Source: a virus
Lineage: Duplodnaviria > Heunggongvirae > Uroviricota > Caudoviricetes
Length of the DNA stretch: 41,901 bases
Direction: 5' to 3' (one strand)
IMG/VR virus record: IMGVR_UViG_2541047898_000007
The notes beneath the pieces are model-generated. The model made no database searches. It was not told the DNA's origin and saw only the letters and a list, made by a program, of their open reading frames with translations. The position numbers were made by a program, and so were the translations under genes. Of this stretch, positions 5,801 through 9,812 are shown in pieces (position 1 is the stretch's first letter; the number at the start of each line of letters is the position of its first letter).

Positions 5801-6224
5801 GGTATTTATCGTTCATCAGATGGACGGCAAAGCGGACCGCTGGAGTACGGTTTTCAACCGGGACAATTTCGGACGCAGTCGCATCTTCAACGATTACGGT
5901 CGGAGTAGGTGTGTAGGGGGCGTCAACGGAACCAGTAGACACACCAGCGGCTTTTGGCAGCCAGGTGCGCCCATCGTCCTGAAGCTCGTAGCGATCACAC
6001 CAGGTAAAATCAACTTCACCTTCTTTCGGCAGGCCGTCGACAACTGGGAAATCAGTGCGAATCGGTTTGGCGTAGTCCTTACCCCGACCTGTTTCGATAC
6101 CTGCATCTTCCAGCGCAACATCCAGCATCAGATTGGCGCGAGCCTCGGTTTTAGCAGTGAACCAGACCACTGCATCTTGCTTTCCGGATTTCTGAGTGGC
6201 TTTAACCACATTAAAGAATTCCAT
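2835..6224 (-). CDS. Large RecE-like exonuclease (exonuclease VIII-like) with long acidic low-complexity N-terminal and central region
   Basis: 1129 aa ORF directly upstream of, and co-oriented with, the Bet/RecT-like gene; call rests on synteny and size, catalytic motif not verified by eye. Confidence 0.5.
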   Translation of the reverse strand: MEFFNVVKATQKSGKQDAVVWFTAKTEARANLMLDVALEDAGIETGRGKDYAKPIRTDFPVVDGLPKEGEVDFTWCDRYELQDDGRTWLPKAAGVSTGSVDAPYTPTPTVIVEDATASEIVPVENRTPAVRFAVHLMNDKYQTHVTKEQQLAASEMSLDEGNTYLHSLLVARNDVPATAKLSLNAEWKMIRAVKDIFTPDEEHEPRLIAAFMSDWVNTDAGDRNQLVEDWRSGKLQLLKTETSNAADVTTGQDLTVEDGIQTDENGRAEGGVVDGEVDTEEQSQQTQQPNLIVVATLPFRQRVLAQFIGDGEYLYHIDAGQKNEIVRLEMDTDDAYVQNLLLAAENVEAFKKAIEHDIHKVVNAVKKVFPVDGKIPELATLIQFLKLWFATDHIDRGILVREWAAGNRISSVQRTDSGTNADGGYVTDRGPDAHHTLDTLDLEIACALLPMDFNHFEIPGSILRRAKEIVTKKEEPWKSWSNILRNQPGVLGVNRTAIFNLVRIAPENIHLTPVAHLEFVNQTMTAAFNSAVELLPLHEAEPAAQEIPQPEGKESPRKSFCTHEENLQRVREEGARRRAEEAAAQPQKVEQELVKNVGNGIFDVTALLQNSATHGTKKATETTSNVQVQETVSDEKQAGDEVQPGESSLESGEESDTSQKDDVDQNTDSVAKNSDSVSQTEPVAAQTEPEAQSDEPAVVYPAYFEPGRYEGLPNEVYHAANGISSTQVKDARVSLMYFNARHVEKTIVKERSAVLDMGNLVHALALQPELLDAEFSVEPVIPEGAFTTAATLRAFIDEHNASLPALLSADDIKVLLEEYNATLPPQVPLGANLEETAQNYMALPADFQRIDGDQKQTATAMKACIKEYNATLPPPVKTSGSRDALLEQLAIINPDLVAQEAQKPAPLKVSGTKADMIQAVKAVKPDAVFADELLDAWRDNPEGKVLVTRQQLSTALNIQKALLAHPTAGMLLTHPSRAVEVSYFGFDEETGLEVRVRPDLEIDLDGVRIGADLKTISMWNVKQESLRARLHREIIERDYHLSAAMYCETAALDQFFWIFVNKDENYHWIAIIEASAELLELGMLEYRKAMRNIATGFDTGEWPAPITADYTDELNDFDLRRLEALRTQA
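3603..3840. repeat. Intragenic direct repeats in the RecE-like gene (two perfect 26 bp copies at 3603-3628 and 3750-3775, a third degenerate copy near 3810-3840)
   Basis: cggcggcagggtggcgttgtactctt occurs twice 147 bp apart; corresponds to repeated peptide unit containing EYNATLPP. Confidence 0.7.
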
Positions 6225-6363
6225 GTGAGATCCTCATTTTTGGGTGTTAGAATCCCCGGACCATTGATAGCGCCCATTGGGTTAACTTTGGTTTTAATGT
6301 TGTTTCCGGTGTAACTTTGGTCGGTACCACCGGACGTAGATCCCGCCTTGCGCGGGGTTTTCG

Positions 6364-6525
6364 TTATGCTTCGTGGGCCATCTGGTCGAACGAAGCGCAA
6401 CGTACTGAACAGTAATCACGTTGCTCGCGTTTCAACTGCGTGCCGTGGATAAAGAGCAGTTCGTTTTTAACTTCCTTCCCTTGCTTGATCGGCTTGCGGC
6501 AGTACGCGCATTTTTTCTCCTGCAT
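6364..6525 (-). CDS. Small zinc-ribbon-like protein (53 aa), absent from the ORF track because it is under 60 aa
   Basis: Manual translation of the reverse strand gives MQEKKCAYCRKPIKQGKEVKNELLFIHGTQLKREQRDYCSVRCASFDQMAHEA with CxxC...CxxxC spacing; sits in the leftward early operon. Confidence 0.4.
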   Translation of the reverse strand: MQEKKCAYCRKPIKQGKEVKNELLFIHGTQLKREQRDYCSVRCASFDQMAHEA

Positions 6526-6536
6526 AACTCACTCCG

Positions 6537-6845
6537 TTAATGGCTAAGGCCATGTCCTAAACCGTTTAGATAAACCTCAACCAGCAAATCTTTGGTGTAG
6601 GTACGTTCGATGCCACGGTGAAGATACAGGCGACCGCGTGCGTTAGCAGATGCGGTCCAGGTTGAGTCTTTGTGTTTTACAAGCATCCCCGGCTGAACTG
6701 CGCCGCGGTTTACTGTCTGTGTACCGTAGTGCTGATGAACCATGATGTACTCCAGTTTTTCTGAGTGAACTTCGCTGGTGTTGCTGCGGCGCTGATCTTC
6801 ACGGTTGAGCGCTTTAACTCTGCAATTCACCACCGCGAAGCTCAC
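6537..6845 (-). CDS. Hypothetical early leftward protein
   Basis: 102 aa ORF, first sizeable ORF downstream of the predicted PL; no recognisable motif. Confidence 0.3.
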   Translation of the reverse strand: MSFAVVNCRVKALNREDQRRSNTSEVHSEKLEYIMVHQHYGTQTVNRGAVQPGMLVKHKDSTWTASANARGRLYLHRGIERTYTKDLLVEVYLNGLGHGLSH

Positions 6846-7195
6846 TTCTGTGCTTTGCCCTTGTCGCCAAGCTGGCGGAACGTTTCAAACCTACTGCGCG
6901 TTTAAGTATTGTTTTGAATACCAAAACCGAGTCAAATCAGCTTTAGTATTGCCACTCTCAAGTGGTTATCTGTCTTTGAGTTTGTGGATGATGATCTGCA
7001 TCATCACAGTCCATACCAGATTGGTTATTGCAACCGCTATAGCTGCTGTAGAAACCAAAGTCGCTAACGAGTAGTTGTCTGCCATAAATCAATCCATCCT
7101 TTACATCCTGAGGACGTTTCACCCTTATCGCCTTATCGCCGGCCAGCGGAGTTTTGGGCCATCTGCGCATTTGTGTGCGTTGTTTGGATGAGGTG

Positions 7196-7237
7196 ATAAT
7201 AGCTAAAGCGATTATTTGAATCAATCGCCTAAACGAT
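7196..7237 (-). promoter_or_regulatory. Predicted leftward early promoter (PL-like) with overlapping operator dyads (OL)
   Basis: Minus strand reads TTGATT (plus 7219-7224), 17 nt spacer, TATTAT (plus 7196-7201); dyads ATAGCTAAAGCGAT (7199-7212) and ATCGCCTAAACGAT (7224-7237) match the ATCGC-N4-GCGAT operator pattern seen at OR. Confidence 0.45.
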
Positions 7238-7352
7238 AATATATTTAGATAAAGCGATAATTTTATGATTTATAAGATTATTTATTTGTTCGAGAAATGT
7301 GTGAGGAAATGACATTAGCGAAGTGATTGGGGGAAATTTAATCTGGTGAGGC

Positions 7353-7378
7353 AATAAAAAACCCGGCAAGCCGGGTTT
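7353..7378 (-). terminator. Rho-independent terminator immediately after the cI stop
   Basis: Plus strand aaaaaacccggcaagccgggttt; on the minus strand a GC hairpin (cccggc / gccggg) followed by a T-run. Confidence 0.6.
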
Positions 7379-8069
7379 ATGCGAAGCGCTTGTAGTCTAT
7401 TGATTGTCTCAGTAGCACTTTAGCCATTACGTAGAACTGATCTTCGTCTTCTGACTCAATATACCATTTCTCGTAGATAGGGTTGTCTGAGATAACAGCA
7501 AGCCGATCTCTTTGCATCTGAAGCCTTTTGACGTGCAGAGTTTTTCCGAACACAAATACGTAAACACCATCACCATCAAAATGAGTCACGCCAGTATCAA
7601 CAAAAATTTGATCTCCTGGTGAGATGGTTCCATCCATGCTGTCGCCGTTCACGGTAATAACTTTTACATTAGCTGCGGGGCGATTTCCGAAAAGTGCGCG
7701 AGCCTGTTCAGTTGTGTATTCGATTGCTCTTATGGTTTCGATAAAATCGCTGGTAACTAGCGAGCCAGGACCGGCGCTGGCCTTAACGTCAAGCACATCC
7801 ACGCGGTATATCTCATTCAAAACTGGTTTAATTTGGTATGGCGTGTTTACTTCGCGAATGCCAGATTCAAACATTTCACCTTGTCCTGTTGAAAGCCATT
7901 CAGGACGCACACCAAGAACAGATGCGATCTCTACTGTTTTTCGTGAGCCTTTCGCACCTTTAAGCAATTTATTTACGCTGGACTGAGCCATACCAACATC
8001 TTTCGCCAGCTTAGCCTGCGTATATCCAGCGACGTCCATTGCGTGCCCTAAGCGTTCTGAAAATCCCAT
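7377..8069 (-). CDS. cI: CI-like prophage repressor (N-terminal HTH, C-terminal S24 LexA-like autopeptidase domain)
   Basis: 230 aa; N-terminal QAKLAKDVGMAQSSVNKL HTH-like segment; C-terminal VNGDSM ... KRL segment with Ser/Lys dyad arrangement typical of S24 peptidases; divergent from a cro-like gene across an operator-rich region. Confidence 0.85.
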   Translation of the reverse strand: MGFSERLGHAMDVAGYTQAKLAKDVGMAQSSVNKLLKGAKGSRKTVEIASVLGVRPEWLSTGQGEMFESGIREVNTPYQIKPVLNEIYRVDVLDVKASAGPGSLVTSDFIETIRAIEYTTEQARALFGNRPAANVKVITVNGDSMDGTISPGDQIFVDTGVTHFDGDGVYVFVFGKTLHVKRLQMQRDRLAVISDNPIYEKWYIESEDEDQFYVMAKVLLRQSIDYKRFA

Positions 8070-8101
8070 AAAAGCCTCTGTTTAAGTCCCCTTTAAATGG
8101 T

Positions 8102-8170
8102 ATCGCTAAGGCGATTGCTTGGCAAAAAATCGCATAGGCGATTGACAATCGCTAAAGTGATATCCATAAT
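8102..8170 (+). promoter_or_regulatory. OR-like tripartite operator with rightward promoter (PR-like)
   Basis: Three 14 bp dyads ATCGCTAAGGCGAT (8102-8115), ATCGCATAGGCGAT (8129-8142), ATCGCTAAAGTGAT (8148-8161); TTGACA at 8142-8147, 17 nt spacer, CATAAT at 8165-8170, then cro-like ATG at 8198. Confidence 0.55.
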
Positions 8171-8197
8171 CGTTTTAAACTAATAGCTGAGGTGATT

Positions 8198-8431
8198 ATG
8201 AAGAACCCCGCAGTAGAAAAAGCGATTGCCCTTGTCGGTAGTCAGAAAGAGTTAGCTAAACGCTGTGGAAAGGCCCAATCAACGATTTGTGATTGGTTGA
8301 ATGGGAAGAAGCGTATTTCTCCTGTTCATGTCCCAGACCTTGTTAATGCCGTTAACGGAGAAATTCAGGCATACGAATTTCGACCTGATCTTCCATCCAT
8401 TTTTCCACATCCAAATAACCATGCCATTTAG
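8198..8431 (+). CDS. Cro-like / YdaS-type small HTH regulator
   Basis: 77 aa from the ATG at 8198 (track ORF begins at an upstream GTG 8192); motif GSQKELAKRCGKAQSTICDW is a helix-turn-helix; divergent to cI. Confidence 0.55.
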   Translation: MKNPAVEKAIALVGSQKELAKRCGKAQSTICDWLNGKKRISPVHVPDLVNAVNGEIQAYEFRPDLPSIFPHPNNHAI

Positions 8432-8472
8432 TCAAACCAGTGGCGTAACTCACTTTATGAGGATTATCACCC

Positions 8473-8793
8473 ATGGAGAACGCAATCGCACGAAAGTTAG
8501 ACCCGCCAATTATCAATCCGGTTGAGATCGAAAGTGTCCTGCTCAACCGGCTTGCATCAGTGGGTCAGAAGTCTTACGCCGAGTATATGGGCATAAGCGA
8601 GTCGACAGCCAGCAGGCGCAAAGCAGAGGGGCATTTTAGCACCATGGCGAAAGAGCTGGCCTTCTTGGGTATTCAGGCTGCGCCACCGGAAGCGGTGCTG
8701 GTGTCACGTGAATATCTGGCCTCAGTCGAAACGCTCGCTGATATCGGACTGAAAGCCGAAAGGGCAAGGCCAGGGCCGCTGGGGTGGGATTGA
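8473..8793 (+). CDS. CII-like transcriptional activator
   Basis: 106 aa; IESVLLNRLASVGQKSYAEYMGISESTASRRK resembles lambda CII (IESALLNKIAMLGTEKTAEAVGVDKSQISRWK); position after cro. Confidence 0.6.
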   Translation: MENAIARKLDPPIINPVEIESVLLNRLASVGQKSYAEYMGISESTASRRKAEGHFSTMAKELAFLGIQAAPPEAVLVSREYLASVETLADIGLKAERARPGPLGWD

Positions 8794-8885
8794 AGATGGC
8801 AGAAACCAGAAAAGGCGAAAGCCGCAGTGCACGAACACAAGCGGCTTTCTACGCGAATTAACTGAACAAATTCACAGGAGTAATT

Positions 8886-9812
8886 ATGGCAAATACTGCT
8901 GAAGTAATCAATTTCCCTATCAAAACCGAGCAAACAGGAGGTCCTATGGCCGACCTGTCCAACGGGTACACCCGGATCGCCAACGAGATTCAGAAGCTCA
9001 AACCACGCCTGCGCATGTCGGGGCGTGAATGGCAATGCCTGGAGGCGGTTATCTGGTTGACCTACGGATGGAACAAAAAACAGGACCGGGTTACTAATAC
9101 CGTCATCGCAGGGCTAACAGGCCTGGCTGATACGCATGTATCAGACGCGATCAGTTCTCTGGCTGAACGTGGAATTATTTTCAGTCACAAGCAGGGCGTG
9201 ATGAAAATTGTCGGTATAAATACTGACCTGAATGCCTGGATTTTGGACAAACCGAAAACGGGAAAACTCTTCCCGAAATCGGGAAAATCCTTCCCGAAAA
9301 CGGGAAAAACCTTCCCGGAAACAGTAGCCACCCAAGACTATAACAATAACAATATTAAAAGATCATCGTCAGAGAATTCTGGCGAATCCTCAGACGACCG
9401 GCTGAACAAGTTTTTATCAGCTCACCCTGAAGCGGTTATTTACACCCCCAACTTCACCAAGTGGGGAACAGTTGCTGACCAGCAATGCGCCGAGTGGATC
9501 CTCACTCTGCTCGAAAAAGTTAAACCCTTCCCGAAAAAACCCGTCATGGCCGCCTGGGCGAATGACGTGCGCCTGATGCGCGAGCTGGATGGCCGGAGCC
9601 ATCGTGAAATCTGCGAGCTTTTCCAGTGGGCCAGCAAGGACGCCTTCTGGCACGCCAATATCCTCTCGCCTGCAAAGCTCCGTGCTAAGTGGGACACGCT
9701 CTCACTTCAGCGCGACGCTGCCGCCCGTCGCACCACAACCGGCGGCGTCCCGGGCATCGACTTCAACAACACAGACTGGATCAACGAGGTGTTCGATGGA
9801 AAGACTATCTGA
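8886..9812 (+). CDS. Replication initiator, lambda O-like, with origin iterons inside the gene
   Basis: 308 aa; follows cII; contains the iteron array and an AT-rich stretch within the coding sequence as in lambda O; repeated peptide KLFPKSGKSFPKTGKTFPE encoded by the iterons. Confidence 0.7.
   Translation: MANTAEVINFPIKTEQTGGPMADLSNGYTRIANEIQKLKPRLRMSGREWQCLEAVIWLTYGWNKKQDRVTNTVIAGLTGLADTHVSDAISSLAERGIIFSHKQGVMKIVGINTDLNAWILDKPKTGKLFPKSGKSFPKTGKTFPETVATQDYNNNNIKRSSSENSGESSDDRLNKFLSAHPEAVIYTPNFTKWGTVADQQCAEWILTLLEKVKPFPKKPVMAAWANDVRLMRELDGRSHREICELFQWASKDAFWHANILSPAKLRAKWDTLSLQRDAAARRTTTGGVPGIDFNNTDWINEVFDGKTI
9251..9324. repeat. Origin of replication iterons (about 3.5 copies of a ~20 bp dyad unit TCCCGAAAACGGGAAAA) followed by an AT-rich segment (about 9335-9370)
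   Basis: accgaaaacgggaaaa / tcccgaaatcgggaaaa / tcccgaaaacgggaaaaa / cttcccggaaac read directly; similar in form to lambda ori iterons (TCCCTCAAAACGAGGGA). Confidence 0.65.

Follow-up and report, generated by a model that had tools for sequence, protein, structure and literature searches.

The dyad ATCGC-N4-GCGAT, repeated on either side of a phage repressor gene in the 41.9-kb stretch of viral DNA analysed here (41,901 nucleotides, hereafter the window), is almost certainly the binding site of the prophage repressor CI and of its counterpart Cro, as judged from the placement of the copies, their conservation among relatives and the covariation of their bases with the recognition helices of both proteins. 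The locus that carries them is very probably a conventional lambdoid immunity region with a lambda-style lysis/lysogeny switch.

Gene organization of the immunity region

Positions 7100-8500 of the window are 100% identical to a prophage region on the chromosome of Escherichia coli HH107 (NZ_CP116405), where RefSeq annotates, in order, an integrase, RecT, RecE, YdaE, a small hypothetical gene, an unannotated gap, an XRE-family regulator, a transcriptional regulator, a CII-family regulator, O and P, with an antitermination protein farther along the same prophage annotation. A first-pass annotation, made from the nucleotide sequence, had named the two genes flanking the central control region cI and cro, and Pfam, PHROG and structural homologues all agree with these assignments. 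The cI gene (7377-8069, minus strand) encodes a repressor of 230 amino acids that matches Pfam HTH_3, Phage_CI_repr and Peptidase_S24 as well as phrog_4 (transcriptional repressor); an AGAGG Shine-Dalgarno sequence lies ahead of its ATG, and directly past its stop codon our scan recovered, at 7378-7359 on the minus strand, the intrinsic terminator mentioned in the first reading, and gave it an 8-bp stem with 5 GC pairs, then TTTATT.

The cro gene (8198-8431, plus strand; 77 amino acids, helix-turn-helix SQKELAKRCGKAQSTICDWLNG) matches Pfam YdaS_toxin and HTH_3 and phrog_35. It diverges from the adjacent cI and has behind it a cII-family activator gene of the same immunity module (8473-8793, plus strand; Pfam Phage_CII; phrog_725) and, downstream of the latter, the replication gene O (8886-9812; Pfam and PHROG matches), which is the gene order of a lambdoid switch. 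In the leftward direction, the first recognisable gene under the predicted promoter PL is kil, a septation inhibitor (6537-6743, minus strand; phrog_294, E = 2.8e-35; also a CDS in RefSeq), followed by ydaE, recE and recT. A 70-amino-acid open reading frame at 6958-7170 was considered as an N-like antiterminator but found no support, being without a Pfam or PHROG match. Folding of the PL leader gave no support for a structured RNA or nut/put-like element (z-score +0.87), and Rfam gave no significant match across positions 6200-9200.

CI joins an N-terminal helix-turn-helix to a C-terminal S24 self-cleaving domain, as lambdoid repressors do, and its sequence holds the Ala-Gly site in ...KASAGPG..., the Ser in GDSM and the Lys in HVKRL, the C-terminal domain also aligning to UmuD'. 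Residues 4-64 of its N-terminal domain match the DNA-binding domain of the 434 repressor (2r63 and 1per; phmmer, E = 8e-5), a modest similarity. Identity to HK022 CI is 72% over 143 amino acids of the C-terminal domain and 56% over the whole protein. Cro is homologous to the solved Cro structures 3bd1, 8co2 and 8c7k, and its helix-turn-helix is identical to that of CI at 11 of 24 positions, including the AQS that starts the recognition helix.

Operators and predicted promoters

Three related operators lie in the 128-bp interval between cI and cro, where they overlap a predicted PR and a candidate PRM in the manner of a lambdoid right operator. OR3 (ATCGCTAAGGCGAT, 8102-8115) and OR2 (ATCGCATAGGCGAT, 8129-8142) are perfect copies of the dyad, OR2 being a 16-bp dyad (AATCGC..GCGATT), and OR1 (ATCGCTAAAGTGAT, 8148-8161), with one mismatch, is the poorest consensus match of the three. 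The predicted PR (TTGACA-17-CATAAT, 8142-8170, plus strand), directed toward cro, cII, O and P, was found by the promoter scan with 11/12 consensus bases, and OR1 takes up positions 1-14 of its 17-bp spacer, the place that had been given for the third dyad. The coordinates reported earlier were all correct, and three dyads are indeed present between cI and cro; their description as evenly arranged was wrong, since the centre-to-centre distance is 27 bp from OR3 to OR2 and 19 bp from OR2 to OR1. Likewise, the -35 hexamer TTGACA had been placed between the second and third dyads, which the scan bears out except that its first T is also the last base of OR2. In the opposite direction, a candidate PRM for the maintenance of cI (TTGCCA-17-TACCAT, 8097-8125, minus strand; 9/12 in the scan) is predicted, with OR2 3 bp upstream of its -35 hexamer and OR3 filling its spacer and touching its -10.

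OR1 should be the site that matters most for PR. As it is the poorest match whereas OR2 and OR3 are perfect, a lambda-like order of affinities is not to be assumed. Counted from the predicted start of PRM, the centre of OR2 would fall near -45.5, and the equivalent operator centre of lambda lies at about -42; this more upstream position makes activation of PRM by CI from OR2 uncertain.

A second operator cluster lies over the predicted PL on the far side of cI, again as in lambdoid phages. The leftward promoter proposed earlier (TTGATT-17-TATTAT) was recovered by the scan at 7224-7196 on the minus strand with a score of 9/12, reading into kil, ydaE, recE and recT. OL1 (ATAGCTAAAGCGAT, 7199-7212, one mismatch) overlaps the PL -10 by 3 bp together with the promoter-proximal spacer, and OL2 (ATCGCCTAAACGAT, 7224-7237, one mismatch) begins with the final base of the PL -35. 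Of the two to three dyads that had been assigned to this promoter, these two hold, and the third, OL3 (TTAGATAAAGCGAT, 7245-7258), 21 bp beyond OL2, is degenerate, with one good half-site and 3 mismatches. The distance from OL1 to OR1 is 949 bp. The view that no rex-like gene lies between cI and OL was upheld: RefSeq annotates no gene between the cI stop codon and OL, and the sole open reading frame there, of 46 amino acids with a TTG start, overlaps the terminator and the operators and is implausible.

Conservation in close relatives and the extent of the recognised unit

A scan of viral contigs returned 165 CI relatives, 80 of which were examined (IMG/VR; CI 85-100% identical). OR2 and OR3 occupy the same positions in all 80, and OL1 and OL2 are found in essentially all of them, the OL1 anchor being missing in 4 loci, at least one of which is truncated. 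Spacings are fixed (19 and 27 bp at OR, 25 bp between OL1 and OL2), and, in relatives with a recognisable OL3, the step from OL2 to OL3 is 21 bp. The 4 bp at the centre vary (CCTA, CATA, CATT, CGTA; CTTG, CCTT, CTGT, CTAG). In the 45 unique OR variants the mean entropy per column is 0.06 bits for half-sites, 0.42 for centres and 0.19 for the DNA separating the sites, and the OR2 half-sites are invariant; the OR region is highly conserved overall in these close relatives, and its footprint is less discriminating than that of OL. Among 57 unique OL variants the half-sites of OL1 and OL2 are virtually invariant, the intervening DNA varies most and OL3 is loosely constrained, reading ATCGATAAAGCGAT, with one mismatch, in many relatives. 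OR1 is also kept, mostly as TTCGCTAAAGTGAT. PR is conserved, PL is found in the same place as TTGACT-17-TATTGT, and the position of the candidate PRM is kept with weaker hexamers (TTGCTA / TAGAGT).

Relatives fall into classes with about 170, 510, 690 or 825 bp between cI and OL1, a result of the cargo open reading frames that many of them have in this interval, and OL remains with PL despite 340-650 bp of cargo between OL and cI. The gene-free interval is particular to the prophage of the window, cargo genes being present there in many relatives. In a separate observation, relatives have a dyad about 700 bp to the right of PR that sits in a different, YdaT-family gene, is perfect in 12/25 and shows free synonymous drift.

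More distantly, Klebsiella phage Mulock shares about 75% DNA identity with the window and has a CI N-terminal domain that is 78% identical. Its right operators read ATCGCCAAGGCGAT, ATCGCATAGGCGAT and ATCTCTTTTGCGAT, with the same spacing and PR hexamers, and differ from those of the window in that OR1 of Mulock has its degeneracy in the opposite half; on the left, Mulock has three good dyads, against two and the degenerate OL3 in the window. Mulock, Klebsiella phage ST13-OXA48phi12.5 and about 160 IMG/VR prophages have the half-sites, spacings and promoter layout of the window, whereas the genes left of PL differ in Mulock and the relatives. The CI recognition helix MAQSSVNKLLKG is unaltered in almost all of 46 CI variants, and this near-constancy is the reason why the relatives should form one immunity group; the prediction from operator and helix sequences is homoimmunity of the window prophage with Mulock, ST13-OXA48phi12.5 and the IMG/VR relatives. 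The only deposited phages with the same immunity region are uncharacterised Klebsiella phages, and the region is found in 27 of 5,426 complete E. coli genomes.

The same data bear on how much DNA is recognised. It is possible, though we hold it the less probable case, that the real unit is a 16-bp dyad, AATCGCY-N2-RGCGATT, or one strong TAAAGCGAT-like half-site with a weak partner, bases other than the ten named in the first reading then setting the affinity. The perfect 16-bp dyad at OR2 agrees with such a unit, and so do the A and T that flank most sites, the bases at position 6 (T, A, T, T, C and T across the six sites) and position 9 (always a purine), and the retention of exactly one perfect half-site by every imperfect operator. 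The 933W repressor binds most strongly to a natural site that deviates from its consensus (PMC3317979), which points the same way, and with this precedent the poor consensus match of OR1 is no proof of weak binding. The outer flanks, however, are not kept at OR3 or OL2, and the bases that are invariant across the relatives are the ten named ones, so that a longer unit would refine the 14-bp dyad as operator and not replace it.

Covariation of operators and recognition helices

Distant homologues, whose CI N-terminal domains are 50-54% identical to that of the window, each have three 14-bp dyads of the form AT-NNN-N4-NNN-AT in the cI-cro interval. In APC_JM3.2 the dyad is ATAGC-N4-GCTAT and the recognition helices are SQPSVW in CI and KQPSVW in Cro; HK639 and SH2026Stx1 have ATAAC-N4-GTTAT, with SQPAIQ in CI and SQPAVH or TQPAVH in Cro; ST104 and 4A7 have ATACGCAAGCGTAT and weaker relatives of it (ATACG..CGTAT), with AQPTIW in CI and KQPTVW or AQPTVW in Cro; and in the window ATCGC-N4-GCGAT goes with AQSSVN in CI and AQSTIC in Cro. 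Within each phage, CI and Cro have the same recognition-helix start, and both shift with operator positions 3-5. Of the computational evidence for the dyads as common operators of CI and Cro, this covariation is the strongest, and it supports the initial proposal that the dyad determines the specificity of the repressor.

The Cro of the window is of the YdaS-like type also found in HK639, in Stx1 phages (SH2026Stx1, PA28), in APC_JM3.2 and in P22-like phages of the ST104/BTP1 type. With a homologous CI N-terminal domain, this Cro and three 14-bp dyads, the window belongs with these phages; its half-site is that of none of them, positions 3-5 being CGC versus AGC, AAC or ACG, and its CI helix has QSS where those of the APC_JM3.2, HK639/Stx1 and ST104 groups have QPS, QPA and QPT, respectively. 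The spacing at OR is also different, as the homologues HK639, Stx1, APC_JM3.2 and ST104 have an even 24-25 bp and the 19/27-bp arrangement is particular to the window family. On the evidence of operators and helices, this family has its own DNA specificity, new within a known family. In the literature searched we found no published characterisation of the HK639, Stx1, APC_JM3.2 or ST104 operators and no published record of the operator sequences of the window.

These results also make it very improbable that the dyads are bound by CI or Cro alone, or by some other factor of phage or host origin, with CI using different sequences. The cI-cro interval and PL hold no other repeated dyad, the recognition helices of CI and Cro begin alike and, in four further phage groups, covary together with the operator, and the sites are unlike the LexA box (CTGT-N8-ACAG) and the lambda CII repeats (TTGC-N6-TTGC). 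A search for the lambda-type CII site gave a single site with one mismatch, at the start of cII, the pattern not being enriched.

Distribution of the dyad in the prophage

The first reading had proposed a motif search across the whole prophage, and in this search the sites are concentrated in the two control regions. The exact dyad ATCGCNNNNGCGAT occurs twice in the window against 0.13 expected, and both copies, OR3 and OR2, lie between cI and cro. Allowing up to one mismatch raises the count in the whole window to 7, where 2.33 would be expected (sites starting at 7199, 7224, 8102, 8129, 8148, 388 and 8976), and 5 of the 7 fall within about 190 bp of control DNA (Poisson P ~1e-12). The repeated 14-bp dyad reported for OR and OL is therefore real, with two perfect copies at OR and three one-mismatch copies at OR1, OL1 and OL2. 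Further operators elsewhere in the prophage were considered and rejected, as the only sites with no more than one mismatch beyond OR and OL are 388 and 8976, a number within expectation.

Only a 4-bp gap yields such sites: gaps of 0-3 and 5-10 bp and an everted order of the half-sites all leave OR and OL without a site of up to one mismatch. At the two-mismatch level 52 sites are found in the window where 29 are expected, and other gaps and the everted pattern give 22-43; as the excess is matched by these controls, it reflects codon content (Ile-Ala, Ala-Ile) and not additional operators. The reading of the palindromes as a functionless chance product of composition or codon usage can draw on this excess and on the frequency of ATCGC and GCGAT in coding DNA, but it is refuted for practical purposes by the clustering of perfect and one-mismatch sites in non-coding control DNA with the 4-bp gap only, and by positions that are kept across relatives while the centres drift.

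Proposed regulation

With the dyads taken as common operators of CI and Cro, CI dimers would bind ATCGC-N4-GCGAT via a 434-like helix-turn-helix, occluding PR from OR1 and OR2, which would keep cro, cII, O and P silent, and PL from OL1 and OL2, which would do the same for kil, ydaE, recE and recT. Expression of cI would be maintained from the weak leftward PRM just downstream of OR2, and at high CI levels OR3, in the PRM spacer, would serve to turn PRM off (negative autoregulation). Cro, whose helix starts with AQS(S/T) like that of CI, would occupy these sites too and, in lytic growth, repress PRM, and under SOS conditions RecA-stimulated self-cleavage of CI at the Ala-Gly site via the S24 domain would lead to induction. 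We infer these steps, from occlusion to induction, by analogy with lambda, 434 and HK022.

HK022 CI binds adjacent operators cooperatively and forms OL-OR loops over about 700 bp (PMC8053113). Since the C-terminal domain of the window CI is 72% identical to that of this repressor, pairwise cooperativity and OL-OR looping, here over about 950 bp, are likely by analogy. A switch wired unlike lambda and the nearest homologues, with CI loading from OR2/OR3 or acting mainly through OL-OR looping, could follow from the 19/27-bp spacing, from OR1 being the worst match and from OR2 lying some 3-4 bp farther from the predicted PRM than in lambda, if these features reflect function. We regard such a wiring as unlikely; if true, it would entail a different autoregulation and induction logic.

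Under the conventional reading the architecture is that of textbooks, with no new regulatory principle, and its main value lies in the prediction of an immunity group and in the series of helices and operators. The group would comprise a minority of E. coli prophages, Klebsiella phages like Mulock and about 160 viral contigs, among which mutual exclusion is predicted. Together with APC_JM3.2, HK639/Stx1 and ST104, the window forms a natural series in which three operator positions and a few helix residues change jointly in CI and Cro, and which can be used for studies of helix-turn-helix-DNA recognition or for orthogonal repressor/operator pairs.

Comparison with HK022 and 434

The window resembles HK022 in its compact region without rex, in the presence of several operators on either side of cI in both phages and in the HK022-type C-terminal domain of its CI, its OL-OR distance being about 950 bp versus about 700 bp in HK022. 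The likeness ends at the DNA-binding domain, where the N-terminal part of HK022 CI barely aligns with that of the window and the helix-turn-helix is not alignable, and at the operators, no ATCGC-N4-GCGAT dyad being found in the HK022 OR and OL regions. The HK022 control regions have GTAC/AGT-rich palindromes, taken by eye as its operators. A further HK022 operator lies some 300 bp downstream from OR (PMC8053113, summarising Carlson and Little 1993); in the window, unlike HK022, no dyad with up to one mismatch occurs between 8162 and 8975. The site at 8976 was considered as an equivalent of the HK022 far-right operator and rejected, as it sits in the O-gene codons I-A-N-E-I and is within chance expectation.

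Compared with 434, the C-terminal domain of the window CI differs in being HK022-like, and the N-terminal domain has its closest solved structure, at modest similarity, in the 434 repressor. The operator itself is different, that of 434 being ACAA-N6-TTGT with a 6-bp centre and the window half-site being ATCGC with a 4-bp centre, and the window does not have the 434 immunity operator. Both phages have 14-bp dyads in which the outer bases are conserved and the A/T-rich centre varies. The recognition helices of 434 CI and Cro start with QQS, where those of the window have AQS, and in both phages there is a Gln at the first helix position and an A at operator position 1, a pairing that, by analogy, may represent the same contact in 434 and in the window.

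Discussion

The C-terminal domain of CI (7377-8069, minus strand) is 72% identical to that of HK022 CI (HK022 comparison locus L092, 923-1630, minus strand), and its N-terminal DNA-binding domain can barely be aligned with the corresponding HK022 domain; compared with the HK022 repressor, the window CI is thus chimeric at the level of its domains. Leftward, a mosaic joint is marked by the loss of similarity to close relatives ~30-40 bp past the PL -10, and the left arm is Rac-like, with the order kil-ydaE-recE-recT and a RecE of 1129 aa. The stretch separating ydaE from the start of recE matches the Hfq-binding sRNA isrB in Rfam, but below threshold (6266-6362, plus strand; E = 0.003, 32 bits where the gathering score is 35).

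From the predicted PL start to kil, ~450 bp carry no annotated gene (6744-7190, minus strand). No N-like antiterminator was recognised in this leader, a 70-aa ORF at 6958-7170 matched nothing in Pfam or PHROG, and the fold of the leader RNA was not unusual (z = +0.87). The leader contains a tandem GGCGATAAG (two copies, at ~7120-7140), which holds two operator half-sites, at 7127 and 7135. The left half of OL1 (7199-7212) reads ATAGC and is invariant across all relatives examined; exactly this half-site is used in the more distant APC_JM3.2 immunity group.

Two positions to the right of PR, one in the window and one in relatives, could extend the operator set. At 8183-8196, ATAGCTGAGGTGAT departs from the predicted operator dyad (ATCGC-N4-GCGAT) at two bases, overlaps the Shine-Dalgarno sequence and start codon of cro, and is near-invariant among relatives and in the Klebsiella phage Mulock; it may simply be the cro ribosome-binding site, or may be a fourth weak site. 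In relatives with a YdaT-family gene after cro, a dyad lies ~700 bp downstream of PR inside I-A-S-A-M codons (710-723 in the related prophage locus L021, and at the equivalent position in 24 other loci), perfect in 12 of the 25 loci and showing synonymous drift in the remainder. This distal dyad could be a weak distal operator, comparable to the extra operator of HK022, or else a by-product of the codons. The window has a CII-family gene at that position, not a YdaT-family one, and its own one-mismatch dyad, at 8976-8989, falls within codons of the O gene. Just within the start of this cII, on the antisense strand, TTTCGTGCGATTGC (8482-8495, minus strand) differs by one mismatch from the lambda CII-site pattern TTGC-N6-TTGC, which was not enriched across the window. 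Lambda PRE occupies the same place, near the start of cII.

In many relatives the interval from the cI stop codon to OL is occupied by cargo ORFs unrelated to one another, and the distance from cI to OL1 falls into classes of ~170, 510, 690, and 825 bp. Examples from three related prophages are a lipoprotein-like ORF of 158 aa (L021, 2229-2705), one of 186 aa with a signal peptide (L027, 2277-2837) and one of 124 aa on the opposite strand (L039, 2207-2581, minus strand), none with a Pfam match. The counterpart in the window prophage (7259-7376) is empty. The interval looks like a hot spot for moron insertion, and the cargo ORFs occupy the position of rex in lambda.
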